A DNA stretch of 52,156 nucleotides, from IMG/VR virus record IMGVR_UViG_3300025120_000077, positions 1-52,156 of that record. The stretch is one strand, 5' to 3'. The notes beneath the pieces were generated by a model that did not search any database, was not told where the DNA came from, and was given only the letters and a program-made list of their open reading frames with translations. Of the stretch, positions 18,066 through 46,169 are shown in pieces. Every line of letters starts with the position of its first letter. Positions within the stretch are counted from its first letter, which is position 1. The stretch is from a virus. Lineage: Duplodnaviria > Caudoviricetes. Both the position numbers and the translations under genes were made by a program.

Positions 18066-18476
18066 ATGGAGTTTGATATACGAAAACTAAATTCCACTGA
18101 CTATGACGAGGTATTAGTTGGTTGGTGGAAGGACTGGGGATGGGAGCCTCCAGCCAAAGACTTTCTGCCAGATGACGGCGAAGGAGGGTTCTTAGTATTA
18201 GACAAAGACATTCCTGTATGTGCAGGATTTATATATGTAACAAATTCAAAAGTAGCTTGGGTGGACTGGATTATATCAAATAAAAATTACGACAGCAAGA
18301 AGAAAAAGCATAGCGCTGTAATCCTATTAGTTGACACTTTAACTAATCTAGCTAAGAACTCAGGAAAAAAATATTCATATGCTCTTATAAAACATAAGGG
18401 CTTGATTAGAACATACGAGAGGCTTGGATATATTAAAGCAGACAATTACACACAAGAAATGATTAAAGTATTATAG
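18066..18476 (+). CDS. GNAT-like acetyltransferase preceding the ejection proteins
   Basis: Begins IRKL, ends LIRTYERLGY (GNAT motif B-like); conserved position before internal virion proteins. Confidence 0.6.
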   Translation: MEFDIRKLNSTDYDEVLVGWWKDWGWEPPAKDFLPDDGEGGFLVLDKDIPVCAGFIYVTNSKVAWVDWIISNKNYDSKKKKHSAVILLVDTLTNLAKNSGKKYSYALIKHKGLIRTYERLGYIKADNYTQEMIKVL

Positions 18477-19266: not shown

Positions 19267-21345
19267 ATGGCACTAGGATACGGGTACGTTAAGGATGCAA
19301 AGCCAATGCAAATAAATTGGCAAGAGGTTGGTAAACAAATGACCGACAACATCCAAGCTGAAATAACAGATCGTCAAAACAGAAAAGACGATATTGATAA
19401 ACAACTAACACAATATAACAAAGACCTCTTAGATCAACCACAGGGGACAAATGCCGAGGTTAACAGGTTTATGGGGGATTTCTCTGCAGACGCAGGAGAA
19501 GCCATGAGAAACGCCGAGAGGATGCTTAAAAGCGGTAATCTATCTGAGAGAGACTTCTATAAGTTTAGGGCTAATGCTAATCAAGGCACTGATTTAATGT
19601 TCGAAGCTGGCAAAAAATTTAACGAAGGGTATGACGAGTCTATGCGTAGGTTTGCGGATGGTGAAAGCCAGTCCAAAGAGAACTGGATGCGCCAACAGAC
19701 CGAAGGGTTTTTAGCTTTTGCCGACAACGGAGCGTACATCAACCCATTGACGGGCGAGGTAAACGTTGCACGCAGGTACAAAGATGAGAACGGAGAGTGG
19801 CAAATATCAACTAAACCAGGGGAGTTTGCCAACGCCTCAGAGCTTGTTCAGCAAGCCTCAGCGAAGTATAATAAATATGATCTGGATGGTTCTATCAATA
19901 AAGCTATAAAGGGATTAGGCGCAACGCTAATTAAAGAGAGCAGCGGATTAAGTACTAAGCAGTTTTTTCAAGCTATACAAGACGGAACCCTAGGGGATAA
20001 AGAGCAAAAGCTTTTGGACCAAGCTAAATTAAATATGGTAGCGTCTTTCACAGCCAACCCTAACCACGTGTCTAGTATCCTTACTGAGAACATGGGATTT
20101 GCACCTAATGGTGAAGCTTATACTTTTACGTATGATGAGAATAAGGCGAAAATAAATGAGAATCTTATTCTTGTAAACCCTGACGGGACAAACAACTTCA
20201 CAACTGTTAACGGGAAAAAACAACTGCAAGCTGCCGAAGCCTATGCATCTGCACAGTTTGAAGCAGGGCTAGGAGGATCAAGAGAAGAAGCTCAAGATTT
20301 AACTGCTGTACAAAAAGAAGAATTAAAACTTAAAAAACAAAGATTAGCACTAGACATTGACAAGCTAAACTTAGACAAAAAGAAATTTAGTAAAGAAGAT
20401 CGAGACAAGGCGACAGACTTAAAAACAAAAGCTCAACTTATAAGCACCTTGTACTCTGGAACAATTGCTGATATTAACGCGACAGTAGATTACTACAGAG
20501 ACTACGGGGGTAACACCAATGTTCTTGAGGTTAAAAGAAATGATACCGGAATTGTTGTGACCTTTGAAGACGAAAATGGAAACGCTCAAACAAGGTCCGT
20601 GAGTTTCTTTACGGCTGATAGCACTTCAGATACCAATGTCCCCAACCCTGACTTTGATCCAAGCCAACCCGAAAGTGAAACAAATCAAAAGTTTGTCAAA
20701 GGTAGACAATTGACTGAGGCCCAGTTTGTAAATGCAGCTTCACAGCTATTAATAGGTGAAGACGTGTCAACTGAAATAAAAAGCAGAGGAGATGATGGTG
20801 AATTATTATATAACCGAGCCCTGACATCGGTCGACAGTCCGATTACTGCCACCACAACGATTGAAGAGGGTGAAACATTAGCTCAATCCGAAACGTATAA
20901 TGTTTCAGCTGATCAGTATTTTGATAAAATTATTGCTGATCCAGAAATTGATTTTGGTTTTAAACCGCCTTCGCCGTTATCTGGTAGAAAGTCATCGAAC
21001 AAGCCCTTTACGGGACTTGGAGTTGGTCCCCTATTGCTTAATTCAGCTGATGAAGATTTAGCTACTGTTTTAGAATCTAGTTTTAAGGATATAGGATTAA
21101 TTGCTACAGATACTGGTGGTTTAAATAATGAAGTAAATGTAAGAATACCTGGGGTTACTAATACAATTACAATAGACGCTAACAATTATACAGGTTCGGG
21201 ACAATTAGAGGAAACACAAAAGCTTAGAGAATTTATAACTAACGCCCTTAAAACAAGACCTGACTTGCAAGAAAAACTTAATTTAAAAGCTGACGTAAAA
21301 AAGCGAGGCGGGCGGGGATCAAAATACAATAAAGTAGGAGGATAA
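19267..21345 (+). CDS. Internal virion/ejection protein 2
   Basis: 692-aa helical protein between the small and giant ejection proteins. Confidence 0.55.
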   Translation: MALGYGYVKDAKPMQINWQEVGKQMTDNIQAEITDRQNRKDDIDKQLTQYNKDLLDQPQGTNAEVNRFMGDFSADAGEAMRNAERMLKSGNLSERDFYKFRANANQGTDLMFEAGKKFNEGYDESMRRFADGESQSKENWMRQQTEGFLAFADNGAYINPLTGEVNVARRYKDENGEWQISTKPGEFANASELVQQASAKYNKYDLDGSINKAIKGLGATLIKESSGLSTKQFFQAIQDGTLGDKEQKLLDQAKLNMVASFTANPNHVSSILTENMGFAPNGEAYTFTYDENKAKINENLILVNPDGTNNFTTVNGKKQLQAAEAYASAQFEAGLGGSREEAQDLTAVQKEELKLKKQRLALDIDKLNLDKKKFSKEDRDKATDLKTKAQLISTLYSGTIADINATVDYYRDYGGNTNVLEVKRNDTGIVVTFEDENGNAQTRSVSFFTADSTSDTNVPNPDFDPSQPESETNQKFVKGRQLTEAQFVNAASQLLIGEDVSTEIKSRGDDGELLYNRALTSVDSPITATTTIEEGETLAQSETYNVSADQYFDKIIADPEIDFGFKPPSPLSGRKSSNKPFTGLGVGPLLLNSADEDLATVLESSFKDIGLIATDTGGLNNEVNVRIPGVTNTITIDANNYTGSGQLEETQKLREFITNALKTRPDLQEKLNLKADVKKRGGRGSKYNKVGG

Positions 21346-24300
21346 TGAACGAACAAGCTTTAAAAGACGCTTATGATTTATTTCGTGCCGAGGGGTATGA
21401 GGGATCTATAGAAGAGTTTATTAGTTTAATGCAAACCAATCCGGAAGCAGTAAATGATGCTTTTTCTATTTTTCAAGATGAGGGATATGAGGATAGTATT
21501 GACGACTTCCAAAACTTAATAGGCGTAAAAAAAAAAGACCCGGTCGCTATGGCTTCCGTATCGGAGGATGGTTCTTCGGTTTTACCAGAGTCTCCAGAGC
21601 AGCCCACTGAAAAAGATTACTTTGAAGGAACCTTTGGCGACATACTCCGAGGGTTTGATAACGTTACACAGACAGGATTAGGTGATTTTGTAGATGACAT
21701 GGCGCGTAGTGTAGCGTCTGGTTATTATCAGGGCGTTGCTTCAGAAAATGCATCCGACCTTCTCCTTGCAGGGTCAATGGCTTCGGAAGAAGATATAGCT
21801 AGTTTTATAGAAGCAAATAAAAACACACAGATGTACGGCCCATCAGCTGAGATGCAAGAGTATCAAAAGGCTTACGAAGATGAGGGTAAAAGCTTTTGGG
21901 GCGTTGTAAAAGGCTTAAGTAAAAGTGGTCTAACTATATTGCCAGAGTTAATTGTAAGCTCTCTTACATCTATGGCAACAAACACGGACTCTCTTTTAGC
22001 TGGTGCAGCTACTATAGGTACAGGAGCAGCAGTCGGAGGAGGTCTTCCTGGTGCAGCCGCCGCCGTACCTTTTGCTTTTGGAGCGGCAAGCTCCGCTTTA
22101 GAGATGGGCGCTACATTCTCAGAATTGTTACAAGAAGAGCTTGATGGTAAAGATTTAACTTCTGAAAACGTTAGAGCTGTCTTAGAAGATCCTGAGGCTT
22201 TTAATAGTATAAGAAATAAGGCTATCACTAGGGGTATTGCTATTGGAACAATAGATGCGTTTACGGGTAAACTGGCGGGAGGCGTAGGCGCAAAACTTTT
22301 AACTAAAGGAGGTAAGAGTCTTTCTGCCGCTAGTAAATTAGACAAAATTAAATCCGTTGGCGCGGCTGGTTTAATAGAGGGGGCTGGCGGGTCAATTGGC
22401 GAAGCCACTGCTAGAGGGCTGATTGGTCAGGAGATGGACATATCTGAGATTGCTTTAGAGGGATTGGCTGAAACCCCAGGGGGGATAAAAGACATAGTCT
22501 CGGCTAGATTCAGCAAGCCTAAGTATAGGATAAACGGTCAGAGAGTAGACGTAGAAGAGATTGATAATGTAATTAATAACTTTACTTTAGAGCAAATACA
22601 AGCCACTAAAATAAAAATTGACAATGATTACTCCGGAAAATCTAAGGAGTTAAACGATAGAGTGATAAGGTTGTCTGTGGAGCGTGAGCTTTTACAAGCT
22701 AACCCAGATTTAAACAAGCCTACACTCGAAGCATTGACTGATCTTCAGTTAGAATTAAACGAGCTAGAAGGAAACAAAACAGAGCCAGCTAAAGAAAAAG
22801 CTTCTTTACTAAGGCAACAAATGAAAGACTTACAAGCCGCTCCCCTACAAGAAGAGGTAGAGGTAGAAGCGGGGCGTGCGCGATTTAGCATGCAAGATGA
22901 CGTAGAGAAGGTATATCACGGTTCACCAAACAAAATAAAAGATGGTGTTTTAAAAAAAGGACAGTCAGGAGCTGTATTTTTAACTCCTTCATTAACTTAC
23001 GCCAAACAATATGCTAGAGACACTGATAATATAGTGGAACTTGAGTTAACACAAGAAAAAATAAATAACCTTTTTGATTTAAGAAATCCAGAGCATATTG
23101 AAAGATTGAGGGAAGGATTTATAAATGAAAATGAAGATTTAGAAATTGTTTATGATTCAGAAGCAGATGCTATAAGAGATTATAATAACGCAATACGGTC
23201 TATGAAAAATGATTCTCAAGGGCGTGAGGGTATAAACGATTGGGCTTCAGGCTCCCAATTTATTGAGGCTATGGAAAATGCTGGATTCGAAGGAGCTGTA
23301 TTTGCAGAAAGACCAGCTGGTTTTGCAGAGACTGATGTTGTAATTAGTTACGCTTTATTTGACAAAGAAATTAATATTGATGCTTCATCCAGACAAAGAC
23401 GACAGCAAAAAGGAGATGCTATAATTCAGTCAACGGAAGAAGATGTAGACGCGATAGCTGAAGAGATGAACGCAATGGATCCTGAAGAAGTAAACTTTAC
23501 TACTCCAGAAGGAGAGACTACCGTTACTGTCAACCCCTTAGAAGAAAGCACAACGCCTGAGACAATAACAGAGGAGGAACTTACAGAGCTTGGATATGAA
23601 ACCACTAATGATCTAGTTAAGCCTATATCTTATTTCGATGGTATTCCTATGATTACAGCAATATCAGATATGCTTTCCACGGGTACAGTTAAAGACTCGA
23701 AAGGGAATGATATGAAGGTTAGCGGAGGATTACTGTTTAATGTTAAGGGAGACAATAAAAATGCTGCATGGGCGGGGGTTGCAAGAGACAAGTCACAAGG
23801 GCAGTATGATAACGCTGTTAGGACCTACCAAAATAACAAAGAACTATTTGATAGGCTATGGAAAGAGGGTAAGATACCAGATGGACACATACCTATGGCT
23901 ATTATAAAAATGGGCAATGAAGCCGTTCATTCAAATGAAGCTTCATTTAGATTTTTCTCTGCTGAAATAAACTCTCAGTCAAAAGAAAATCAAACCGAGG
24001 CAATGAACGATGTTAAATCGATTTTTGAAAACAAACCAGAAAAACAACGTGCTGACGCTGATGCTGTTCTTTCATTTATAAATCAAAATAATATAACAAC
24101 ATTAGGTCAATTTTTTGAAGCTATAGTTAGTGATGCTAACCAGAGATCTAAAAGGAATAAAAATACATTATCTCTAAAAGAAAGAGCATTTATTTTTGAC
24201 AATTTAATTTCACCAGAAAAAAAAGAAGGAGAGGTTAAGGCAAACAAGCCTTTTATTAAATCACTATACAAAGGAGGTGAGGTTAATCAAACTATGTTTA

Positions 24301-27300
24301 CTGCAAATAATTTATATAACGCTATTGGAGAGAAGTCTATGCTTAAGGCTAATAAAGGTGATGTTGTTGCTGTAGTTGGTGTTGATGTAAAAAATGGAGG
24401 GGTTATAGATATTAATCATGAAAACTATGGGACGGGACCTAAGGGTAGACCCATTGCTTTAATAGAAAATCCTACAAACGGGATGGAGGTTTTCCCTACA
24501 TGGAAAGCCAAGTCTAACAGAGTCTTTAAAAAGAATATTCGCGGTAAAAGGCCTGGAGATAAGGAAGTGGCAGCTCAGACCATGGGGACTGTTGCTAATG
24601 ATGAAGCTTTTCAAGGAGATGTTGTCACTACCGAAATGAGTCCTCTCGATATTCTTATAGGTAAATTAAAATTTGCTTTCCCAAACGTTAGCGTTACTAC
24701 AAATATAGAAGAGTTTAATAATATATTGTCACAGCCAGGAGTCCGTACCAAAGAGTCAAAGGGCAGAGTAATACTAGGACTAACAACTGACGGTAAAATT
24801 TATTTAAACCCGGAAGTACAATCTTTAGGCACCCCTATACATGAGTTTGGTCATATATGGTTAGATTTTTTAAGATCAAAAGATAGTGGAAGGAAAGGAG
24901 ATAAGCTTCTTGCGAGAGGGTTAAAGCTTGTTGAAGGAACGCCAGAACTTACAAAAGCTATAGAAAAATATGGTGACACAAAACTTGCAAGGGAAGAAGC
25001 TCTAGTGGAATTATTAGCAACGAAAGGGGAGACCATAGCAAATGCTAGTCAAAGATCTAAGTTTAAGGAGTGGATGAACGCTATGTTTAAATACATAAAA
25101 GAAAAGTTTACCACAACGAAAGATTTAAAAATAAAAGATATTAATAAAATGACCTTAGATGATTTTATTAATACTGGTCTAGCAGATTTATTTAAAGGAA
25201 CGGCTGTTTCTGCAACTTTTGATGCTAAAGCAGAATCAACAGGCTCCGCAGTAAGGATGAGAAAAGGAGAAAAATCTCAGGAGCAAAGAATAAGAGAGGG
25301 CCTTAAAAGAACTGACGATCAAGGAAAAGAAATCCCAAGGAAAACTCCAACTGTTAGTTCCGCTATTAAAACCTTTGAACGTTTATTTACAAACATAAAA
25401 GATCCCTCTAAGATTACCCTGACCCAAAGACAGGCAATAGCAACACAAATAAAACTTTTGAATCGAGGAGCTAGAACCGCTAAAGCCTCGTTTATTAAAG
25501 CTCAAAAGGTGTTGACTTCTCAAATAAAGGACATGAGACGTGGGGGCAAAATATCTGACGCTCAACTTACCGCCGTTCTTAATAGATTTTCTAAGGTTAA
25601 TATGTTTAATCCTACCTCTATAGACCGATTTGTGGACTATATGGCTAAAGTGTTTGCTGATGCCGAGTATGCAGCAAAAATAAATTTTGCGAGTAAAGCC
25701 CGTAGGAATAAAGCAAAGAAAGCGGCGCAGTCTAAAATTGGTATGGCTGATTCAATAGTTCCTCAGTTGTTGGAGTTGTTTAGCGTTAATCCAACTTTAA
25801 TACCCGATAGTGTATTAGATCAGTATATATCTTTAGTTGATTCGTTTAGCAAAGCCGAAGCGGTATTGTCTCTTCCCTCAATATCCGAGGTAAAAAGACA
25901 GGTTGAAAAGGTATTGAAGCAGTTAGATGAGGAGCAATCAATGGCGATTGATCTTGCTGACAGATTTGCAAATACAGATAGCAAGGTCTTTGACTCAGAC
26001 AACAAGTTAGATTATGCAGCTACCCTTAAAAAAATGCTTGATAACGGTGAGATAAACGAGCGGGAGCTTGAGGTAATGCGTAAATATAAGTCACAGATAT
26101 CCCCGCCCCAACTTAAAAAACCAAAAACCGAGGCTGAATTAGAAGCTGAAAGAGAATTACTTTTGGAGGGTATAGACGAATCAACTGATTTTTCTGTGTC
26201 TGAATTGGCATTACCATACGCTAGAGATTTAGCTAAACAGTTTAAAAAACTAATACAAACAGATGCAATTAATAAATTCGATAATGTTGAATTAAAGAAT
26301 GTATTAAAACTAATAGACAATATTAATAATGGTTATGCGCCACATCTTATACAGAGATATAACGAAAAATTAGAATCAATCACCAAAGCCTCCGGCTTGG
26401 CCACATCGATTAATACTGCTAAACCGCTAACGTTTAGTGCAATGTATGCTAGGGTTAAGGCTTTAATAACGGGTAAAGACAGCATCCAAGAATTGGTACG
26501 ACGTAATCCTTTATTTTATATTGACCAAGTCTTTGGAGATTTTAAAACCAAGAATATATTTAACGCTGTTTTTGGAGAGGCTTCTAAAGCTGTAACTAAA
26601 TATAGATCGGAGTTTGACGTTATACAAGAAAAGATAAATGAGGCTGGAGCTAATGTCCTTAAATCTTTAGGTAGTGATCCTAACAAGTTTAGCAAGTCGA
26701 AGTATAAACAGATGGCTTATATGATACAAGAAGAGTATCTGAGTAACCCTGATAGCGAACAAGTTAATCCAGTTACTGAATTTTTAAAAGCCACTATAGA
26801 AAGAATTAACGAACAAAACACACGATATACAAAAGGCGATTCTGATATGCTTCAGGATATACTTGATACGTATACTAATGACCAAGGCGAGTTTGATAAT
26901 CAAGCGTTATTTGATTCTTTTAATAAGGCTGAAAAACAATCTATTCAAACCGTAAGAGACATAAATGATAGTCTAGGGGAAAAGGCTGAGATTGCCGCCA
27001 CACTAATCAGAGGTGAAAAATATAATCCTCTTGATAATTATGTACACCTTAACGTACTTCCTCCTGGTAATAAAAATTCCTTGGAGTCGTCACAGCTTAG
27101 TGTTATTAAGGCCTATAATACTAGCAGAAAACCATCCACCAAAGCAAAGACGTTGATTAAAAGGACTGGAGATGTGTCGCCTCTGAACTTTGACATTTAC
27201 GCTTCAGCAATCCGAGGTAGCAAAAACACATTAATTGATTTCCATTTAACAGCTCCATTAAGGACTGCAAGGGGAACGCTGAACCAAACAAAAAAACTTT

Positions 27301-29072
27301 TAAAAGAACAAGGCAAATACACATTTGATAACGTCAGGGTGTTCAATGCAATAGAAAGTGGCTTTGAAGAGTCAACAGAGAATTTATTGGTTAACATGTT
27401 TGGCGAGTCATCAGCAGCCGATGCTGCTTTAAACTATTTACAAAAAACGGGATACCGATCTATATTGGCGGGAACTGGCAGATTTATTGCTGAATACGTA
27501 TCCAATGTTAGCTTTGCAATGATTGTAGATCCAAAAGGATTTATAGCCGGATCAAAGATGGGATGGTTGAGTTCTCCTAAAGGGGCACAAGTTTTAAATA
27601 ACTTAAGCAGTAAACAGACAACTCGAATATATGCCGATGGCCTGACAGGTAGATTTATAGACAAGTCTATACTTGATCAAGCTGCGGGTGTTCGAGGCGG
27701 TGCTGCTGTTGCGCCCGTACAGAACGAAATCCTTAAAATGTGGAATAAAACAGGTCAGCGCTGGAAGAATGGCGTTGAGGCTGCTGCAGATTTTTTGATT
27801 TCTACTCCTGATAAAGCCGTCATGCGTCCATTGTGGTTTGGAGCTTTTGAAAATGAATTTAAAAGAATTACCGGTAAGTCCCCTGACTTTGACAAAATCG
27901 CAGATAATGATTCAACTTATATACAGGCTAACCAATCCGCTTTAGATGAAGCTACAAATTTAGCTGATAAGAAATCAGTAATGGCGGGCGCTACAGACAA
28001 TGCTTTTATGGGTATCTTAAAGGGTACGGCTAAACCAAATCAAAGCGCACGGCTTAGAGCTTTTAATGCATTTAATAACTTTATGACTCGGTTCCTTATA
28101 TTTGAATATATAACGGCACGTACAGGTGTTGCCAATCTAATAGGCAAAGGCGAGCTCAGCAAAAAACAAGGCGGTAGATTGATCGGCGCAGTTATAAGCC
28201 GAATGATGTTGTATACCATACTAGGGCAGCTTTTAGCTGAGGGAATGACATCTTTGATAAACGATGATGACGACGATGAATTGCCAGGAGAGGGGATGAA
28301 GTCTCCAGAAAAAATGTTGGGTCAAGCCTTTGCATCTACCTTCACCTCTCTTCTTTTAGGTAGGGATTTTGGAAATGCAACTAAATTAATTATTAATAGA
28401 GGTGTAGAAGAATTTAATGAAGCGCAACTTGAGTTCTTAAGGGATGGTGAGTACGATGCCTTTAAGGACGCTTTACAGTATACACCTCTTCCTAAAACTG
28501 CGTCTGGCAGGGGTAATGACTTAGGAGATTTTTTAAAAGGAATGGGCGCTGCATACGGACCCGTTATTGGTGCAGGTTCATTATTAATAAAAAAGTTAAC
28601 AGAAGACAAAAAGAAAACACCTGAAGCGATTGAACGACAAGACATGGAGAGGTTTATAAGGTTGCCCCTGGAGCTTCTTGGTAACCTAGGATTCATACCT
28701 CTTTACAAAGACGTTCGAAAGATTACATTAGATCGTATTTATGGAGATCTTTCTAGAGCCAAGAGAGAGCTTAAGGACAAACAGAAAGCCAAAAAAGAAA
28801 TGTTGCAAGGCTACGACAGTGAGTCGGACATGAAGAGGTACGACAGAGAGTTGTGGAATGCAACCTTTGGTCCTAACTCTCCAGGCTATGATGAAAAACA
28901 GGCGCTTAAAGAAATTGAAAGAGCGCAACGACAAATAAAACAACAACAAAAGGATGAGATGTATAATTATACACCTCCACAGAAAAGAAAAAAGGTAAAA
29001 CAAAAATCACGTTTTAATAAGAAAAAGTCATCGCGATTTAATAAGAAAAAGTCATCGCGATTTAATAATTAA
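21345..29072 (+). CDS. Giant internal virion/polyvalent protein with ART-like and zincin HExxH domains
   Basis: G/A-rich hydrophobic N-terminal segments; VYHGS...AVFLTPSLTYAKQYA (ART-PolyVal-like); TPIHEFGHIW...EEALVE (MPTase-like); basic C-terminal repeat. Confidence 0.7.
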   Translation: MNEQALKDAYDLFRAEGYEGSIEEFISLMQTNPEAVNDAFSIFQDEGYEDSIDDFQNLIGVKKKDPVAMASVSEDGSSVLPESPEQPTEKDYFEGTFGDILRGFDNVTQTGLGDFVDDMARSVASGYYQGVASENASDLLLAGSMASEEDIASFIEANKNTQMYGPSAEMQEYQKAYEDEGKSFWGVVKGLSKSGLTILPELIVSSLTSMATNTDSLLAGAATIGTGAAVGGGLPGAAAAVPFAFGAASSALEMGATFSELLQEELDGKDLTSENVRAVLEDPEAFNSIRNKAITRGIAIGTIDAFTGKLAGGVGAKLLTKGGKSLSAASKLDKIKSVGAAGLIEGAGGSIGEATARGLIGQEMDISEIALEGLAETPGGIKDIVSARFSKPKYRINGQRVDVEEIDNVINNFTLEQIQATKIKIDNDYSGKSKELNDRVIRLSVERELLQANPDLNKPTLEALTDLQLELNELEGNKTEPAKEKASLLRQQMKDLQAAPLQEEVEVEAGRARFSMQDDVEKVYHGSPNKIKDGVLKKGQSGAVFLTPSLTYAKQYARDTDNIVELELTQEKINNLFDLRNPEHIERLREGFINENEDLEIVYDSEADAIRDYNNAIRSMKNDSQGREGINDWASGSQFIEAMENAGFEGAVFAERPAGFAETDVVISYALFDKEINIDASSRQRRQQKGDAIIQSTEEDVDAIAEEMNAMDPEEVNFTTPEGETTVTVNPLEESTTPETITEEELTELGYETTNDLVKPISYFDGIPMITAISDMLSTGTVKDSKGNDMKVSGGLLFNVKGDNKNAAWAGVARDKSQGQYDNAVRTYQNNKELFDRLWKEGKIPDGHIPMAIIKMGNEAVHSNEASFRFFSAEINSQSKENQTEAMNDVKSIFENKPEKQRADADAVLSFINQNNITTLGQFFEAIVSDANQRSKRNKNTLSLKERAFIFDNLISPEKKEGEVKANKPFIKSLYKGGEVNQTMFTANNLYNAIGEKSMLKANKGDVVAVVGVDVKNGGVIDINHENYGTGPKGRPIALIENPTNGMEVFPTWKAKSNRVFKKNIRGKRPGDKEVAAQTMGTVANDEAFQGDVVTTEMSPLDILIGKLKFAFPNVSVTTNIEEFNNILSQPGVRTKESKGRVILGLTTDGKIYLNPEVQSLGTPIHEFGHIWLDFLRSKDSGRKGDKLLARGLKLVEGTPELTKAIEKYGDTKLAREEALVELLATKGETIANASQRSKFKEWMNAMFKYIKEKFTTTKDLKIKDINKMTLDDFINTGLADLFKGTAVSATFDAKAESTGSAVRMRKGEKSQEQRIREGLKRTDDQGKEIPRKTPTVSSAIKTFERLFTNIKDPSKITLTQRQAIATQIKLLNRGARTAKASFIKAQKVLTSQIKDMRRGGKISDAQLTAVLNRFSKVNMFNPTSIDRFVDYMAKVFADAEYAAKINFASKARRNKAKKAAQSKIGMADSIVPQLLELFSVNPTLIPDSVLDQYISLVDSFSKAEAVLSLPSISEVKRQVEKVLKQLDEEQSMAIDLADRFANTDSKVFDSDNKLDYAATLKKMLDNGEINERELEVMRKYKSQISPPQLKKPKTEAELEAERELLLEGIDESTDFSVSELALPYARDLAKQFKKLIQTDAINKFDNVELKNVLKLIDNINNGYAPHLIQRYNEKLESITKASGLATSINTAKPLTFSAMYARVKALITGKDSIQELVRRNPLFYIDQVFGDFKTKNIFNAVFGEASKAVTKYRSEFDVIQEKINEAGANVLKSLGSDPNKFSKSKYKQMAYMIQEEYLSNPDSEQVNPVTEFLKATIERINEQNTRYTKGDSDMLQDILDTYTNDQGEFDNQALFDSFNKAEKQSIQTVRDINDSLGEKAEIAATLIRGEKYNPLDNYVHLNVLPPGNKNSLESSQLSVIKAYNTSRKPSTKAKTLIKRTGDVSPLNFDIYASAIRGSKNTLIDFHLTAPLRTARGTLNQTKKLLKEQGKYTFDNVRVFNAIESGFEESTENLLVNMFGESSAADAALNYLQKTGYRSILAGTGRFIAEYVSNVSFAMIVDPKGFIAGSKMGWLSSPKGAQVLNNLSSKQTTRIYADGLTGRFIDKSILDQAAGVRGGAAVAPVQNEILKMWNKTGQRWKNGVEAAADFLISTPDKAVMRPLWFGAFENEFKRITGKSPDFDKIADNDSTYIQANQSALDEATNLADKKSVMAGATDNAFMGILKGTAKPNQSARLRAFNAFNNFMTRFLIFEYITARTGVANLIGKGELSKKQGGRLIGAVISRMMLYTILGQLLAEGMTSLINDDDDDELPGEGMKSPEKMLGQAFASTFTSLLLGRDFGNATKLIINRGVEEFNEAQLEFLRDGEYDAFKDALQYTPLPKTASGRGNDLGDFLKGMGAAYGPVIGAGSLLIKKLTEDKKKTPEAIERQDMERFIRLPLELLGNLGFIPLYKDVRKITLDRIYGDLSRAKRELKDKQKAKKEMLQGYDSESDMKRYDRELWNATFGPNSPGYDEKQALKEIERAQRQIKQQQKDEMYNYTPPQKRKKVKQKSRFNKKKSSRFNKKKSSRFNN
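29013..29068 (+). repeat. 24-bp tandem repeat (2.3 copies) encoding FNKKKSSR
   Basis: TTTAATAAGAAAAAGTCATCGCGA at 29013 and 29037, with a partial copy at 29061. Confidence 0.9.
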
Positions 29073-40741: not shown

Positions 40742-40765
40742 TTTCGGATATTGAATCCTCATTAG
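40742..40765 (-). ncRNA. Degenerate hammerhead-like core (probably inactive)
   Basis: CUAAUGA-GGAU-UCAAU-AUCC-GAAA; G5 is replaced by A and stems I/III are not convincing. Confidence 0.3.
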
Positions 40766-41055
40766 ATATTTTGAATTAGCTTACTTTCATTGTAGAAACA
40801 ATCATCAGCATAATAACGTTCATCATGGACTGACTTACTTTCTACTAATCCAAACGATGCAATTGCTTCGACATTCTCAGGTATTTTATATTCATCTATG
40901 CACTCACCATCTTCCAACAGTATAACACTATATCCTACTATACTTTCAAGGTCGTTATATAATGTTTCTCTCACTACTTCATACTGAGCATTACCTTGAT
41001 CTTTAAAACCATCTTCAAGATAGGTTTTGAGTTTGTTTTCTGTTATTGTTTTCAT
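40762..41055 (-). CDS. Hypothetical acidic early protein
   Basis: ORF track; ATGA overlap with the upstream gene. Confidence 0.6.
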   Translation of the reverse strand: MKTITENKLKTYLEDGFKDQGNAQYEVVRETLYNDLESIVGYSVILLEDGECIDEYKIPENVEAIASFGLVESKSVHDERYYADDCFYNESKLIQNI

Positions 41056-41339: not shown

Positions 41340-41394
41340 GACAATATTGTCGATGCGAGAGAGGGAATCGAACCCTCTCATGATCCAATCTCGC
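41340..41394 (-). ncRNA. Mini-tRNA-like element B plus 3' hairpin
   Basis: GCGAG-ATTGGATCATG-AGAGGG-TTCGATT-CCCTCT-CTCGC-ATC-GACA-ATAT-TGTC. Confidence 0.75.
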
Positions 41395-41400
41395 TAGTGA

Positions 41401-42354
41401 TTACTTACCTTGGATGTAAGCTACAATCTTCGTAGCTTGTTGCATCGCATATAGGCATTCTTTTGGCTTATCCTCTAAAGCCTTACACCATCCTTTGATA
41501 TAGGCAATGCTATTCTCCTTATCATCTTTTGGATCAAGTCCCAATAACCCTGAGATGTACATCGCTGATATCTCTGCAACCAATTCCTCCTTAGCATAGG
41601 TGTTATCACCCCAAAAGGATATCTCAGTTAGGCTTTTACGATCCATTCGATCTTTGTGACCGGTTGAATGGGCTAACTCATGAAACAGTACCTTATAGTA
41701 GGAATCAGAGTCAACAAACTTATTTAGCTTAGGCATATTCACTGTATCGGTTTCAACATTGTAAAATGCCCTATCTCCAAACAGATGACATACTACCAAT
41801 TTACCATCTCGATCTACATAGCTTTTGCTCAGTTGATCAGCTATCTCAATTGGCTTATTGTCAGCAGGAACATCAGCATCCAATACATGAGGAACAATGC
41901 CATTGCATTGATCAACATTGTATACTTGCCAATATCGGATTGAAAATGTTTTACGATATCTTAATTGCCTTTTGCCATTGATTACAATCTTTTCACTTTG
42001 ATTGATTTTTTTAACGTTTTTTGATGCTACATAACATTCTTTCTTAGCATCATAAAATCCTATCGTCCATCTGTAAACATCAGCAGTATTACCCTTTTCA
42101 CCTGATTTGATTGAACCACCTAATTCTCTACAATGATTTTCAGTTAACCATTGGTTATGCTCATAACCCTCAGCCATCATAACTGCATTGAGCATAAATA
42201 CATTGAATCCTTTGTAGTAGTATTTTTTGTTGTAACTCATAGGTTGATTCACATCTCCTGATTTCCATGGCATGAACCATTTCATCCCATCTCGCTTTAG
42301 TCCCTCTAAAACGGCATCATTAACTTTCTGAAAAATTTTGTCTTGGTTTGACAT
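41401..42354 (-). CDS. ardC: ArdC-like antirestriction protein (ssDNA-binding N-domain + zincin-like MPTase)
   Basis: WFMPW, YKGFNVFML, QWLT, VYNVDQ, LFHELAHSTGH and YAKEELVAE motifs; true start is MSNQDK at 42354. Confidence 0.9.
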   Translation of the reverse strand: MSNQDKIFQKVNDAVLEGLKRDGMKWFMPWKSGDVNQPMSYNKKYYYKGFNVFMLNAVMMAEGYEHNQWLTENHCRELGGSIKSGEKGNTADVYRWTIGFYDAKKECYVASKNVKKINQSEKIVINGKRQLRYRKTFSIRYWQVYNVDQCNGIVPHVLDADVPADNKPIEIADQLSKSYVDRDGKLVVCHLFGDRAFYNVETDTVNMPKLNKFVDSDSYYKVLFHELAHSTGHKDRMDRKSLTEISFWGDNTYAKEELVAEISAMYISGLLGLDPKDDKENSIAYIKGWCKALEDKPKECLYAMQQATKIVAYIQGK

Positions 42355-42375
42355 ATTTGTTGGTGTTTGTTGTTT

Positions 42376-42429
42376 GACATTATTGTCGATGCCTATCGGG
42401 GAATCGAACCCCGATACATCCAATTAGGC
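42376..42429 (-). ncRNA. Mini-tRNA-like element A plus 3' hairpin
   Basis: GCCTA-ATTGGATGTA-TCGGGG-TTCGATT-CCCCGA-TAGGC-ATC-GACA-ATAA-TGTC. Confidence 0.75.
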
Positions 42430-42435
42430 AGTTGA

Positions 42436-42678
42436 TTATTGATAGTAAGCTATCATATCATAGGTAGATGAATAAACCTTTTCACTCCCATTTAAACTTG
42501 GGATTCTCTCTACTTTTGCTATTTCTGTTATCTTCTCTCTAAATTTATCATGAAGTAATTTGTTTGGATTTTCTTGACCTACTATTGCTGATATTAAATT
42601 TGTCTCTAAATCATATCCATTGTAATAGGTAGATGTTTCGTCTGTGATTAGGTTTATTACTGTTGAAATTTTTTTCAT
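42436..42678 (-). CDS. Hypothetical early protein
   Basis: Tightly packed ORF. Confidence 0.6.
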   Translation of the reverse strand: MKKISTVINLITDETSTYYNGYDLETNLISAIVGQENPNKLLHDKFREKITEIAKVERIPSLNGSEKVYSSTYDMIAYYQ

Positions 42679-42680
42679 AA

Positions 42681-42866
42681 TTATTGTTTTTTTCTGTTGT
42701 TATATTCATTAGTTAATACCTGAAGAAATAAGAGATTTTCCTCTGTTAAATCATACTTGATTCTAAGGAGGATTTTTCTTTCGATCTCTTCCATAGTCAT
42801 ATTGTCTACTATCCTTTGGAAAATTTTTTGGTTAAACTCTTGTCTTTCTGTTGTTGAAATTTCCAT
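42681..42866 (-). CDS. Hypothetical early protein
   Basis: Tightly packed ORF. Confidence 0.6.
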   Translation of the reverse strand: MEISTTERQEFNQKIFQRIVDNMTMEEIERKILLRIKYDLTEENLLFLQVLTNEYNNRKKQ

Positions 42867-42868
42867 TG

Positions 42869-43174
42869 TTATTGTTTTTTGATTAATTTATTAAATGCTC
42901 TTTTGATGATCGATAGATCGTATTTTAGTTGATCGAATTGCCATTCGTTATTGACATTGTATCTCTTGTCGAATCCATATGCATGATACCCTTTGTCTTC
43001 ATGGATGTAAACGAATTGGTTTTTTACTTCAATTGGCTTAGTTAAGATCACAAAGGATTCGTAAGTACTACCTGCCATTGTTGTAGCAAGATGACCCGTT
43101 GAAAGTTCATGCTTTTCCACTATAGGTAGCATTTCATTGATTGCATTGATTCTGTTTTGGATTGCTTTTTTCAT
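42869..43174 (-). CDS. First gene of the early operon, hypothetical
   Basis: CAACAACAAAACACA leader directly after the ribozyme. Confidence 0.65.
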   Translation of the reverse strand: MKKAIQNRINAINEMLPIVEKHELSTGHLATTMAGSTYESFVILTKPIEVKNQFVYIHEDKGYHAYGFDKRYNVNNEWQFDQLKYDLSIIKRAFNKLIKKQ

Positions 43175-43195
43175 TGTGTTTTGTTGTTGATTAGT

Positions 43196-43255
43196 ATCTC
43201 AGATTTCGTCCTAATGGACTCATCAGATCAGCCATTCAGCTGATGATCTAAAGAT
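43196..43255 (-). ncRNA. Type III hammerhead ribozyme
   Basis: AUCU-U-UAGA-UC^-AUCAGC-UGAAUG-GCUGAU-CUGAUGA-GUCC-AUUA-GGAC-GAAA-UCUG-AGAU: full catalytic core, all three stems, AUC cleavage triplet. Confidence 0.93.
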
Positions 43256-43366
43256 GAAGATTTTTGCCTGTGATGTCCGTATAACCCTTAATTTGCATTT
43301 GCCTATCGAGTCAACTTGGCAGGAGAGAGGTCTCATTTCCTCCCAGCAATTTTTATGAAGTATTAC

Positions 43367-43374
43367 CAAACTTA
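43367..43374 (-). promoter_or_regulatory. Candidate -7 box (TAAGTTTG) of the early operon
   Basis: TAnnTTTG on the minus strand about 110 nt upstream of the ribozyme, with AT-rich sequence further upstream. Confidence 0.5.
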
Positions 43375-43807
43375 AAATGCTAATATATATTAAATTTATA
43401 TAACTACCAAATGAAACCTATATAAATGCATTTGATCAAATGTTGGAAATGTTGTTTTGTGATGCAGTTTGCAGGAAATCATACTGCACAAATCGATTGG
43501 ACTGATCGAGTTTACTTACTTTGATTATTGTTTCTGAATTGTTTTGGGGGTATTAAGTGAACGAAGTGAGCTTCCCCCCAAAGGGATTATTTTTGCGAGA
43601 TGTCAAACAAAAAACGGATCGACAAAGGATGCCCTCCAGTTGACAACCTTGTAACTACCTGATAGCCAGTCAGGTAAAACGTCAAAAAATCTGCAATGCA
43701 CCGATCATGTGTTACCCCACACCTAAGTTTTTTTTTGAGTTTTTTTTTTGGGCCAGCGCGCGTACAGTATAGTATAATACAACAGTTCCGTGTATCTAAT
43801 AAATTTG

Positions 43808-43815
43808 TATCTTTG
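43808..43815 (+). promoter_or_regulatory. -7 promoter box (TATCTTTG), leaderless
   Basis: Ends 3 nt before the ATG at 43819. Confidence 0.55.
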
Positions 43816-43818
43816 ATA

Positions 43819-43974
43819 ATGTCTTATAGGCTAGAGTTATACAACAGGTTACGGGTAGGGTTTGCATTAGGTTGGTCCTATTACTCTAGAGATAGGAAAC
43901 ATGACTGGTCAGAGCTGGTTATATATTTAGGTTTAATAAGTATAACAATAAAGGGATATGAAAAAAATGAGTAG
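43819..43974 (+). CDS. Small hypothetical protein (start MSYRLE)
   Basis: The start after the promoter box is preferred over the track's start at 43696. Confidence 0.55.
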   Translation: MSYRLELYNRLRVGFALGWSYYSRDRKHDWSELVIYLGLISITIKGYEKNE

Positions 43975-44167
43975 AGACAACACTATCAGCGATATGGTTG
44001 ACGGGTTGTATGTAAAGAACGGCAGGTTAATAAATGGAAGACCTGATAGTATGACAGGTATACAGCAGGCGGCAAATATGAAAAGGATCATTGATGAAGA
44101 TCGTAAGATTAAGATGATTGCAGATGGTATTGGTCGAGCTGAAATGATGAAGGGTTTGTTTGGATAA
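43958..44167 (+). CDS. Hypothetical protein
   Basis: ORF followed by a terminator. Confidence 0.6.
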   Translation: MKKMSRDNTISDMVDGLYVKNGRLINGRPDSMTGIQQAANMKRIIDEDRKIKMIADGIGRAEMMKGLFG

Positions 44168-44194
44168 TTTGTTGGTTAATTATCTTTATTGTGG

Positions 44195-44225
44195 AAAGGC
44201 TACTTTTAATCGGGTAGCCTTTTTT
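44195..44225 (+). terminator. Rho-independent terminator
   Basis: AAAGGCTACT-loop-GGTAGCCTTT followed by a T run. Confidence 0.75.
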
Positions 44226-44546
44226 ACGTTTAAAAACCAACATATTTATGTTAAAAAACCTGTAAATAGACAAGAATAAAAAATAAATAATTTTTCTTAT
44301 ATATATTTTATAGTAATTTAATGAGTCATCATTTTGTTTTTAGGATTGACAAACCGTTAATTATGTTAATTTTCAACATAAAGTATGTTAAATACATGTC
44401 GGTTATAGACCCTTAACTATTTGATAATCATTACTTATGTTGATTATGTTAATTCTTCTCGCATGAGAAAAGTAAAAATAATAATAAAAAGAAATAAATA
44501 TATATATAAGTAAAGGGGAAAAAAAACTAACATTCAACATTTTTTA

Positions 44547-44554
44547 TATATTTG
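44547..44554 (+). promoter_or_regulatory. -7 promoter box (TATATTTG) for groEL
   Basis: TAnnTTTG followed by an (AAATC)n leader. Confidence 0.6.
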
Positions 44555-44579
44555 TATAAATCAAATCAAATAAAATCAA

Positions 44580-46169
44580 ATGGATAATTCGGGAGGATAT
44601 TCGCCAAAGGATTTACATTTTGGCAAAGAAGCACAATCAAAACTTATTTCGGGTATTACAAAACTATCAGATGCTGTTAAGAGCACCTTGGGTCCAATGG
44701 GTAATACGGTGCTGATTGAAAGCCCGCATCACACCCACGGGATAACTGTAACAAAAGACGGCGTTACTGTAGCTAAGAGCATACAACTTTTGGATGCGGT
44801 AGAGAACCTATCGGTCCAAATGATGAAAGAGGCGGCAGATCGAACAGCCTCAGAAGCTGGTGATGGTACTACTACGGCAATTGTATTAACAGAGGCGCTT
44901 GTAAAAAAGGGCCTTGAGCTTATTGGGCCAAAGGACAATAAAACCATGATCTTGCGTGAAGTTGCGGCAATGAGTGAAGAGGTTATTGAGAAATTAAAAA
45001 AGCGTTCGATACCCGTCACCAAGGAGCTCCTACTTGATGTTGCTACGATATCATCCAACAATGACCCTGAGATCGGCCAGATTATATCACAGACCTATAA
45101 CCAGGTAGGAGAGAATGGGATCGTAACAGTTGAGAAAAGTCAAACCTCTGAGACCACCTTCGAGACCACACAGGGTATAAAGGTTGACCGAGGGTACTCA
45201 AGCCACCTGTTTATAAACAACCACAAGAAGGATGAGTGTATACTTGAGGATGTGTTTGTCTTGGTGTCTGACTCTGAGATAAACAATATACTCTCGATTG
45301 AGAATGTTCTAAAGCCAATTATTGCCGAGAACAAGAAATTATTAATAGTAGCGCCGTGTTCTCAAAACGTAACAAATACGTTGGCGGCCAACGTCATGAA
45401 GAACAATCTGAAACTTTGTACCATTATTCCTCCCAATTTTGGATACAAACGCCATGAGCTGATGCATGACATCGCTCTCTCGGTAGGTGCTACTTATTTT
45501 TCTGAAAGCACAGGTGATGACCTGAGCCTTATGACCTTCAAAGATTTAGGCAGAGCCAAAAAGGTGATCGTAGGGAAAGACAGCACGATCATACTCAAGG
45601 ACGATGACAAGGTCAGCAAGGAGGACATTGACAAAAGGGTTGAGGAGCTGATGGACGCCCATAAAATAACAAAGAAAAAAGCCGACAAGGATTTTATCAT
45701 GTCTCGCATCGCGTCCCTCACAGGCGGTGTAGGCGTTATCTATGTCGGCGGGAATACTGATCTGGAGCAGAAAGAACTCTATGATCGGGTGGACGATGCC
45801 GTATGTGCAGTACGATCTGCGCTAGTTGAAGGTGTTCTTCCTGGAGGAGGCCTTGCCTTGTGGGAGGCAGGTGACGATATTATATTTTCAAAATCGATCG
45901 CTCACGCGATTTTCGGTGAGGCACTTCTTGCCCCTTTAATCCAAATAATTGAGAACGCTGGGGTTGACTGGGCACCTTATGGCGCTGATGTAGGCCACGG
46001 GTTAGATGTAAAGTCTGGTAAGGTTGGTGACATGATTGAGATGGGGATCATAGACCCTCTGAAGGTTACGCGGACGGCGCTGCAAAATGCTGTGTCTGTC
46101 GCCACCACGATACTATCAACAAACGCCATAGTTACTATGGCTAGGAGTTATGAAACAAAAGATAAATGA
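44580..46169 (+). CDS. groEL: Phage-encoded chaperonin GroEL
   Basis: AVKSTLGPMG, VTKDGVTVAK, AGDGTTTA, GVLPGGG and GIIDPLKVTRTALQNA motifs. Confidence 0.97.
   Translation: MDNSGGYSPKDLHFGKEAQSKLISGITKLSDAVKSTLGPMGNTVLIESPHHTHGITVTKDGVTVAKSIQLLDAVENLSVQMMKEAADRTASEAGDGTTTAIVLTEALVKKGLELIGPKDNKTMILREVAAMSEEVIEKLKKRSIPVTKELLLDVATISSNNDPEIGQIISQTYNQVGENGIVTVEKSQTSETTFETTQGIKVDRGYSSHLFINNHKKDECILEDVFVLVSDSEINNILSIENVLKPIIAENKKLLIVAPCSQNVTNTLAANVMKNNLKLCTIIPPNFGYKRHELMHDIALSVGATYFSESTGDDLSLMTFKDLGRAKKVIVGKDSTIILKDDDKVSKEDIDKRVEELMDAHKITKKKADKDFIMSRIASLTGGVGVIYVGGNTDLEQKELYDRVDDAVCAVRSALVEGVLPGGGLALWEAGDDIIFSKSIAHAIFGEALLAPLIQIIENAGVDWAPYGADVGHGLDVKSGKVGDMIEMGIIDPLKVTRTALQNAVSVATTILSTNAIVTMARSYETKDK

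Follow-up and report, generated by a model that had tools for sequence, protein, structure and literature searches.

A complete type III hammerhead ribozyme is encoded on the minus strand, at positions 43252-43198, of the viral genome record IMGVR_UViG_3300025120_000077, whose 52,156 nucleotides (nt) were analyzed in full and are referred to here as the window. The ribozyme lies immediately before the first gene of a leftward gene array and constitutes the 3' end of a conserved leader-plus-hammerhead module of about 176 nt. It is read here, tentatively and at a little under even confidence, as an active, cis-cleaving hammerhead that would serve as RNA punctuation at the head of the leftward, putatively early operon.

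Hammerhead Sequence and Significance

All parts of the ribozyme were read directly from the minus strand. Stem III is formed by the 5' strand UUUAGAU (43252-43246), which ends in U16.1 (43246), and the 3' strand AUCUGAG (43204-43198), which begins at A15.1; the two strands are paired in the covariance-model alignments to Rfam and to R2, a model described below, and stem III may also reach outward to 43255/43196, leaving one U bulged. Position 17 of both alignments is C43245, the cleavage-site nucleotide of an AUC triplet, and cleavage is predicted to separate 43245 from 43244. Stem I (AUCAGC, 43244-43239, with GCUGAU, 43232-43227) shows pair probabilities of 0.44-0.91 and is closed by loop I, UGAAUG (43238-43233). 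The catalytic core strand CUGAUGA (C3-A9, 43226-43220) is followed by stem II (GUCC, 43219-43216, with GGAC, 43211-43208) around loop II, AUUA (43215-43212), and then by GAAA (43207-43204), which comprises the core GAA (G12-A14, 43207-43205) and A15.1 (43204).

This arrangement agrees with the Rfam family Hammerhead_3 (RF00008) throughout. The core strand CUGAUGA at 43226-43220 reads as C3-U4-G5-A6-N7-G8-A9, G12-A13-A14 and the A15.1-U16.1 pair are present, and position 17 is H (not G); loops cap stems I and II and stem III has an open end, as in the type III layout. The core-adjacent pairs A1.1-U2.1 and G10.1-C11.1 are formed in the covariance-model alignments, where stems I, II and III measure 6, 4 and 7 base pairs (bp). 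A preliminary description of the site had called it a complete type III hammerhead, and every element that it listed was found in its place, with all defining features present. The loop-loop pair that it had singled out, U at the 5' end of loop I and A at the 3' end of loop II, is invariant in 47 of 47 family members; together with a 3'-side U in loop I, these nucleotides correspond to the published loop-loop motif of natural hammerheads (PMC2632901). Since the catalytic core is complete, the helices are intact and the loop-loop nucleotides are conserved, site-specific self-cleavage at 43245/43244 would be expected.

The mRNA left after the cut is predicted to begin with stem I, paired from its first base, and to continue with stem II and an open A-rich stretch, which bears out the earlier wording of a hairpin-capped end. 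The A-rich spacer and translation start region (43197-43175) is unpaired in that predicted fold. The spacer to the ATG at 43174 measures 21 nt (43195-43175, counted from 43196), and A15.1 lies 30 nt from the ATG. The position claimed for the element, in the 5' untranslated leader of the first array gene and 21 nt before its ATG, was confirmed.

Searching with Hammerhead_3, the check proposed earlier, gave a full-length match of 40.6 bits, though this does not reach the Rfam gathering score of 48.5. The expectation value (E) was 1.1e-7 in a 301-nt search, 1.9e-5 for the window against 4227 families and 4.4e-9 for this one family against the record. Since the score falls under 48.5, a default Rfam scan of the site returns nothing; the gathering threshold is a curation cut-off and does not represent a structural feature. 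The low score is a property of the whole phage subfamily, since all 12 hammerhead matches in five other family loci are also under the threshold (37.2-45.3 bits). The family as a whole is therefore missed by routine annotation.

The training set of R2 comprised 47 hammerheads from other viral contigs and excluded the window and its relatives. Aligned over all of its positions (1-55 of 55), the model scored the window hammerhead at 56.5 bits (E 1.9e-14 by a rough calibration), and the runner-up site in the 52-kb window scored 10.1 bits (E 1.4). Neither a second hammerhead nor another ribozyme family was found in the window by the whole-window Rfam scan (E ≤ 0.5) and R2. Excision or circularization between two ribozymes was thus ruled out, since the window holds a single hammerhead. 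The folding energy of a 73-nt stretch containing the site is not distinctive (z = -1.16), with 28 of 200 shuffled sequences folding equally well.

A Conserved Structured Leader RNA

The sequence preceding the cut, 128 nt at 43373-43246 on the minus strand (129 nt with C17), is a structured leader RNA conserved in eight loci. In the alignment of these loci (A7), conservation begins abruptly at 43373 (AAGUUUGG...), a few bases after the candidate -7 promoter box TATATTAG. Two hairpins were predicted by RNAalifold, P1 (43367-43362 with 43350-43345) and P2 (43344-43339 with 43330-43325), as well as a long-range helix, P3 (43323-43318 with 43278-43277 and 43270-43267), which encloses an inner helix (43315-43308 with 43287-43279).

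With the diverged copy of locus L224 added, 12 of 28 pairs are changed on both sides and 97.8% of the cells are paired, in a set of only eight related sequences whose alignment was fitted to the model and from which the structure itself was taken. None of 500 shuffles reached the observed values, and slid controls gave one to three double-changed pairs. Between the window and its closest relative, L235, the leader carries 3 mismatches in 128 positions and the DNA further upstream 20 in 327. The leader had been treated as a disposable stretch in the preliminary description; as it is conserved, structured and covarying across eight loci, that view is not supported.

Searches of Rfam 15 gave no match to the leader, either with 43100-43400 at E ≤ 10 or with the whole window at E ≤ 0.5; the former returned Hammerhead_3 and two low-scoring matches to eukaryotic families that overlap the hammerhead and spacer rather than the leader. 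The leader-plus-ribozyme module had no blastn match among GenBank phages at E ≤ 0.01.

The leader homologue of L224 (62.2 bits) has no hammerhead behind it. The hammerhead is replaced there by a 113-nt tRNA-like stretch (L224:1350-1462) that ends 22 nt before the ATG (z = -2.22) and can be folded into an acceptor-like stem of 8 bp and an arm of 5 bp whose loop is UUCGAUU. This hints, as a lead and not as a result, that another processing signal can take the place of the ribozyme at the leader junction.

A T-arm-like sequence was also noticed by eye before the gene in L243 (1416-1470) and L240 (55-109), the elements of L224, L240 and L243 being located about 22-34 nt before the first gene. Rfam calls no tRNA in L224 or L243, ARAGORN finds none in L240 or L243, and the fold of the T-arm-like stretch is not distinctive (z = -0.19).

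Orthologous Loci, Second Allele and Natural Deletion

Homologues of the 101-amino acid (aa) product of the first array gene were found in 42 metagenome loci, of which 39 were tabulated and 35 had enough upstream sequence to be judged. R2 detected 12 hammerheads in 11 of the 42 loci. A ribozyme lies 22-23 nt before the homologue ATG in five of the 35 judgeable loci (L235, L242, L245, L246 and L256). In three more (L238, L241 and L244) it is found 308-411 nt upstream, with another open reading frame (ORF) of 70-104 aa in between. L241 and L244 retain leader and hammerhead as an unaltered unit. L238 shows the hammerhead alone, since its contig begins there (the ribozyme occupies bases 4-58). The position of the hammerhead therefore follows the leader and not the gene.

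That the hammerhead and the 101-aa gene travel as one mobile cassette was considered and rejected, since no upstream hammerhead was found in any of 16 viral contigs with more distant homologues or in 27 of the 35 judgeable metagenome loci, and another gene follows the ribozyme in three.

All orthologous ribozymes represent a second allele, with the triplet AUA, stem I ACUAGC/GCUAGU and U10.1/U11.1. The comparison with L235 is the most direct: the 101-aa gene and the spacer are identical (0 of 329 mismatches; spacer alone, 0 of 23), and the ribozyme (L235:1423-1477) differs at 8 of 55 positions, none of them in the conserved core. Four of the eight differences exchange two stem I pairs with compensation (U-A to C-G and C-G to U-A), two convert G10.1-C11.1 into U/U, one changes C17 to A17 and one falls in loop II. 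The U/U variant at 10.1/11.1 is natural and active (PMC3088659). Contigs of three sequencing runs, all from one study, show the 43208 difference of the second allele. Packed as they are between identical flanks, the eight differences resemble the outcome of recombination between hammerheads, with one allele replacing another, more than that of gradual drift.

Two relatives lack the module. L236, with an 88% identical gene and a homologous promoter region, is without the sequence corresponding to 43370-43201 and runs from '...TTTCAAG' directly into 'TGAGATACTAATC...ATG'; this is best read as a deletion, since remnants of both module ends are kept. L124, the nearest IMG/VR relative, has a different leader of 67 nt and no 101-aa gene. 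Since that leader is common to L124, L125 and L126, the window state is the derived one in that comparison. The leader-plus-hammerhead module is thus dispensable in nature.

Candidate Promoter and Transcription Start

The Bacteroidota promoter consensus consists of TTTG, a gap of 19-21 nt and TAnnTTTG. A candidate -33 element, TTTG (43411-43408), is found on the minus strand 20 nt upstream of the -7-like box TATATTAG (43387-43380), which has the form TAnnTT(A/T)G. ATTTG is retained in most rows of A7, and a -7 box stands at the same place in L245 (TAACTTAG), L242 (TATCTTAG), L256 (TATATTTG), L241 (TACCTTAG) and L236 (TACTTTAG); further upstream, several of these loci have unrelated DNA. A scan for sigma-70-type promoters flags the same spot (TTGGTA-17-TATATT, 43410-43382). 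The boxes fit the consensus and would form a promoter with its transcription start at about 43373.

A start downstream of the cut had been named among the observations that would refute the preliminary description. The candidate boxes are located upstream of the ribozyme, and none occurs between it and the ATG. As for the primary leader that cleavage would remove, the earlier figure of about 115 nt was close, the predicted length being 129 nt.

A Family of Minimal Phage Type III Hammerheads

A pattern that combines the core with stem II matched at least 120 stretches of viral contigs. Among 120 stored viral loci, a simple descriptor recovered 64 type III hammerheads in 46, with ORF calling that was crude and loci that came from one pattern scan and are not independent. 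The family traits are a 6-bp stem I with the loop UGNNUG, a 4-bp stem II with a 4-nt loop ending in A, and a short stem III. In 62 family sequences, the CUGAUGA core is invariant except at position 7. Most positions of stem I show all four Watson-Crick pair types across the family. Since stem I pairing was a condition of the descriptor, only the variety of pairs is informative here and not the percentage paired. The AUC triplet is rare, with 3 of 62 sequences, and stem III of the window is longer than usual and AU-rich. The exact 23-base core string of the window was not found in the viral contigs.

The genomic placement is stereotyped. In 54 of the 64 contexts, all of them distinct, A15.1 is followed within 70 nt by an ATG-initiated ORF of at least 40 codons. 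Its start codon typically stands about 27 nt further on, with an interquartile range of 25-30.75 nt for the distance in those 54, so that the 30 nt of the window fall within it. A co-oriented ORF ends no more than 70 nt upstream in 53 of the 64. A strong hairpin abutting stem III, with a minimum free energy (MFE) of -10 kcal/mol or lower, accompanies 49 of the 53 copies with an upstream gene, where it is GC-rich, versus 5 of the 11 without (Fisher p = 0.0009). The window has no upstream gene, and its upstream 44 nt have an MFE of 0.0 and form no hairpin; it is a leader-type copy, like that of Flavobacterium phage elemoE.

A link of these ribozymes to one gene type was rejected, as the adjoining genes are varied: one is ArdC-like, four carry a gamma-glutamyl cyclotransferase-like domain and many are without known function.

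The intercistronic hairpins of the family, in loci of the range L004-L123 (for example L011:3270-3320, L015, L091, L108 and L115), often share an apical sequence. Of 62 distinct upstream contexts, 21 contain an exact 16-mer and 31, from 18 loci, a loose form of it. Stem I of the ribozymes beside these hairpins varies freely. No Rfam family covers the shared-apex hairpin, which may be a protein-binding or processing site.

Among the named relatives, the hammerhead of elemoE (18097-18153, minus strand) lies 13 nt before gp59, the first gene of a leftward array beside the divergent junction. The stretch is at least 99% identical in all 68 Elemovirus records; these genomes are near-identical and so count as one observation. 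R2 (E ≤ 0.01) found no hammerhead in Cellulophaga phages phi38:1, Calle_3, phi18:3 and phi46:3, in Maribacter phage Panino or in MW202828.1. In L125 and L126, the hammerhead is inside a three-gene block that is absent from the window.

Some contig ends fall near the ribozyme. A piece from run X2 ends at 43241 and another starts at 43250, a piece from X1 starts at 43230 and one from X3 ends at 43213; runs X1-X4 are labelled RNA-Seq and may be DNA. Since the contigs are short everywhere in the region and come from one study, nothing was concluded from their ends.

Proposed Mechanism and Alternative Readings

In the punctuation reading, transcription would start at about 43373 from the Bacteroidota-type promoter formed by the TTTG at 43411-43408 and TATATTAG at 43387-43380. 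The first 128 nt would fold into the multi-helix leader RNA and the next 55 nt into the hammerhead, and self-cleavage between C43245 and A43244 would give two products: a 129-nt leader RNA with a 2',3'-cyclic phosphate end, and an early mRNA with a 5'-hydroxyl, in which stem I and stem II would be followed by 21-27 nt of open A-rich sequence up to the AUG. The cut would uncouple the leader RNA from the coding RNA and would provide the mRNA with a fixed, structured 5' end beside the ribosome landing site. The leader RNA probably has a function of its own, either in cis before cleavage or in trans after it, and is probably not mere waste. Cleavage might also plausibly stabilize the mRNA. Punctuation between two functional RNAs is favored over waste removal because the start-codon distance is fixed across the family, the ribozyme persists at the translation start whichever gene comes first, and the leader is conserved.

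Several observations weigh against this reading. The AUC triplet has been called 'essentially absent in natural hammerheads', and in one viroid ribozyme it was poorly cleaved during transcription (PMC1636495). The hammerhead fold of the 55-mer (-14.8 kcal/mol) is predicted to be 0.6 kcal/mol less stable than a competing fold (MFE -15.4 kcal/mol). The window leader alone folds no better than shuffled sequences (z = +0.36), and the covariation comes from the small, self-fitted set of sequences mentioned above. TAnnTTTG is at most weakly enriched, with 90 matches in the window; shuffled sequences give 70.9 ± 8.0, and one in 100 of them reaches 90. The proposed promoter depends on the Bacteroidota consensus. 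The distribution is patchy as well: the 27 judgeable metagenome loci without an upstream hammerhead, the deletion in L236, the different leader of L124 and the dispensability that follows all count here. A further covariance model, R1, detected a hammerhead in 3 of 40 capsid-relative records, all three belonging to its own training set, with 2 of 5 among the records at least 90% complete; R2 found one in 1 of 7 named relatives' genomes, and a model of the leader matched 1 of 56 records.

A wider claim, which we regard as possible but on balance improbable, is that the 128-nt leader represents a new class of structured phage RNA, with the hammerhead as its built-in 3'-end maker and the cut also freeing the mRNA. 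If so, the first RNA made by the phage would be a discrete folded RNA of about 129 nt that ends in a cyclic phosphate and would target either the transcribing polymerase or, in trans, the host. The tRNA-like element of L224 would then suggest that interchangeable processing devices serve the leader junction, and the arrangement hairpin-hammerhead-about 27 nt-AUG would be a general form of cistron punctuation in phages of hosts without Shine-Dalgarno-led initiation.

Alternatively, the leader may be waste and the cut may serve only to give the early mRNA a 5'-hydroxyl, hairpin-capped end that resists 5'-end-dependent decay. This is rather unlikely in our judgment. The predicted post-cleavage end, paired from its first base, would suit such a role, and the fixed start-codon distance across the family points to the downstream RNA. 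Leader-type copies such as those of the window and elemoE moreover have no hairpin upstream, whereas 49 of 53 gene-preceded copies possess one, which would shield the RNA on that side; stability control was proposed by Perreault et al. for the ribozyme of haloviruses HF1 and HF2 (PMC3088659). Against this reading, the leader covaries and is more conserved than the DNA upstream of it, a diverged leader occurs in L224 with no hammerhead, and relatives such as L236 keep the same gene without the module.

An unlikely explanation is that the module is a passenger or selfish element, spread among phage early regions by recombination with little or no benefit to the phage. It would account for the patchy distribution among close relatives, for presence and absence at one locus (L236, L124), for the L125 and L126 hammerheads within a block that the window lacks, and for the ribozyme-only differences from L235, which resemble a recombinational allele swap. 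Both alleles, however, keep every core base and all helices, a single hammerhead offers no excisable RNA unit, and the stereotyped placement before start codons over 64 copies is hard to explain without a function in expression.

Less probable still would be an allosteric ribozyme, in which the leader responds to a ligand, to a protein or to cell state and gates the folding and cutting of the hammerhead, timing or tuning early expression. Leader and ribozyme are always adjacent in the eight close loci, and RNAalifold, run on the complete module, favors base pairing between the linker UUCAUC and the core GAUGAA, six pairs that would block the active fold and that are intact in five of seven sequences, with one mismatch in the other two. 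The slightly more stable competing fold of the window points in the same direction, and regulated cleavage of phage hammerheads was raised by Perreault et al. (PMC3088659). Against this, Rfam gave no match to a known aptamer family in 43100-43400, the blocking pairing was predicted from seven sequences and shows no covariation, and energy models ignore the tertiary contacts that favor the active fold.

That the motif is a chance occurrence or a dead, non-cleaving relic is hardly credible: the Rfam score below the curated threshold, the unusual AUC triplet and the undistinctive predicted fold would fit, but the match to the independent model R2 (E 1.9e-14), the 12 of 12 sub-threshold scores of other family members and the compensatory changes between the two alleles speak against it.

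Relation to Known Hammerheads

Hammerheads of phages and prophages were described in 2010-2011, and Perreault et al. (2011) proposed that the phage ones cut long transcripts into gene-length mRNAs (PMC3088659). The layout in which a hammerhead heads an early transcript has a direct precedent in the haloarchaeal viruses HF1 and HF2, where the ribozyme (HHphage) precedes the first ORF of a polycistronic early transcript by 13 nt, the mapped 5' end of that transcript lies within 3 nt of the cut and a role in stability was suggested (PMC3088659). The earlier suggestion that the context of the window hammerhead points to a new function is weakened by this precedent. The two differ in that the HHphage core is atypical, with insertions, and belongs to a virus of an archaeal host, whereas the core in the window is fully canonical; HHmeta, a structural analogue of HHphage, needed very high Mg2+ (PMC3088659). 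The window has a conserved structured leader, while none is described for HF1/HF2 in the available text of that paper (PMC3088659).

Prophage hammerheads, such as the triple set around ardA in Agrobacterium tumefaciens, lie between co-oriented genes of changing identity (PMC3088659, PMC6155905). Both that locus and the window have an anti-restriction gene nearby, which is ArdC-like in the window. The prophage hammerheads form arrays of several ribozymes of mixed types, many with pseudoknots, whereas the window carries one copy at the operon head without an upstream gene. CChMVd and other type III hammerheads of viroids and satellites share the topology and the loop nucleotides, a 5' U and a 3'-side U in loop 1 and a loop 2 3' A opposed to a purine (PMC2632901). 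They process multimeric circular RNA genomes and have a loop 1 of 7 nt (PMC2632901), while the window hammerhead is DNA-encoded in a phage operon and has a loop 1 of 6 nt. In reviews, the function of phage hammerheads is still called open (PMC6155905, PMC13725137).

Compared with its own minimal phage family, the window hammerhead shares the stems, loops and start-codon distance; it lacks the upstream gene and hairpin and has the 128-nt leader instead. In RiboJ-type insulators, a hammerhead in a bacterial 5' untranslated region removes the upstream RNA and leaves a constant, structured mRNA 5' end ahead of the ribosome binding region. These insulators are synthetic and were tested in Escherichia coli, whereas the window holds a natural element in a Bacteroidota phage. 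Bacteroidota largely do without Shine-Dalgarno-led initiation.

Among publications other than Perreault et al. (2011), judged by titles and abstract openings, none treats a hammerhead from a Flavobacterium phage or one fused with a leader RNA. The union with a conserved structured leader, the compensatory allele pair and the natural deletion appear to be new within that coverage, with the reservation that the supplementary alignments of 2011, such as Dataset S1 of PMC3088659, may hold members of the family. The locus is unusually clean natural material, since it offers two compensatory alleles and a module deletion before the same gene and promoter, and a cultured distant relative with the same layout exists in the Elemovirus phages of Flavobacterium sp. 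BAL314. It also suggests that the early transcript opens with a structured RNA as yet unclassified.

Genome, Host and Neighboring Genes

The window comes from an uncultured marine podophage, and the IMG/VR record is estimated to be 88% complete. Relatives of its virion protein occur in Elemovirus phages of Flavobacterium (45%), Cellulophaga phages such as phi38:1 (40%), Maribacter phage Panino (52%) and an uncultured podovirus (64%). Since this kinship is with phages of Flavobacterium, Cellulophaga and Maribacter, the host is probably a member of Flavobacteriia. A near-identity search of 42000-45000 gave no match among GenBank phages.

Structural genes occupy the plus strand from 1 to 29 kb. 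From 43174 downward, the minus strand carries a run of small ORFs, including the ArdC-like one, and then helicase and primase genes; it is from this gene content that the leftward array would be classed as early. Since plus-strand genes begin at 43696, a divergent control region spans 43175-43695, and the leftward array is headed by the 101-aa ORF (43174-42869, minus strand). The 101-aa protein has no match to a PHROG or Pfam family; it belongs with 92 related protein clusters, none of them named beyond 'hypothetical protein'. No intrinsic terminator was found in 42800-43800.

Two genes downstream of the 101-aa gene, a 340-aa protein (41401-42423, minus strand) is assigned by PHROGs to 'anti-restriction protein' and by Pfam to ArdcN and the zincin-like metallopeptidase domain MPTase-PolyVal, and is therefore ArdC-like and not ArdA. 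ARAGORN calls a 98-nt tRNA-Trp(CCA) at 41352-41449 on the same strand, overlapping the 3' end of this ORF, where the Rfam tRNA model reports nothing at the gathering score or at E ≤ 0.5; the call is probably false or a tRNA-like remnant.

Presence and absence of single genes is common in the early region. An 80-aa ORF (42436-42678) is missing from contigs of two runs, with a joint from 42434 to 42680, and from L235 (a 245-nt gap), and strains without it carry an 18-nt insertion after 42759. A 97-aa protein (40762-41055, minus strand) shows a sub-threshold Pfam match to SUa-2TM (23.1 bits against a cut-off of 25), the two-transmembrane effector domain of SMODS/ubiquitin-associated systems. Across the divergent region, a GroEL-like chaperonin of 529 aa is encoded on the plus strand (44580-46169; phrog_5725, E 3.8e-132). 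In addition, the structural half of this podophage genome of about 59 kb contains two very large plus-strand ORFs, of 2575 aa (21345-29072) and 1493 aa (7460-11941), the latter matching a virion structural PHROG.

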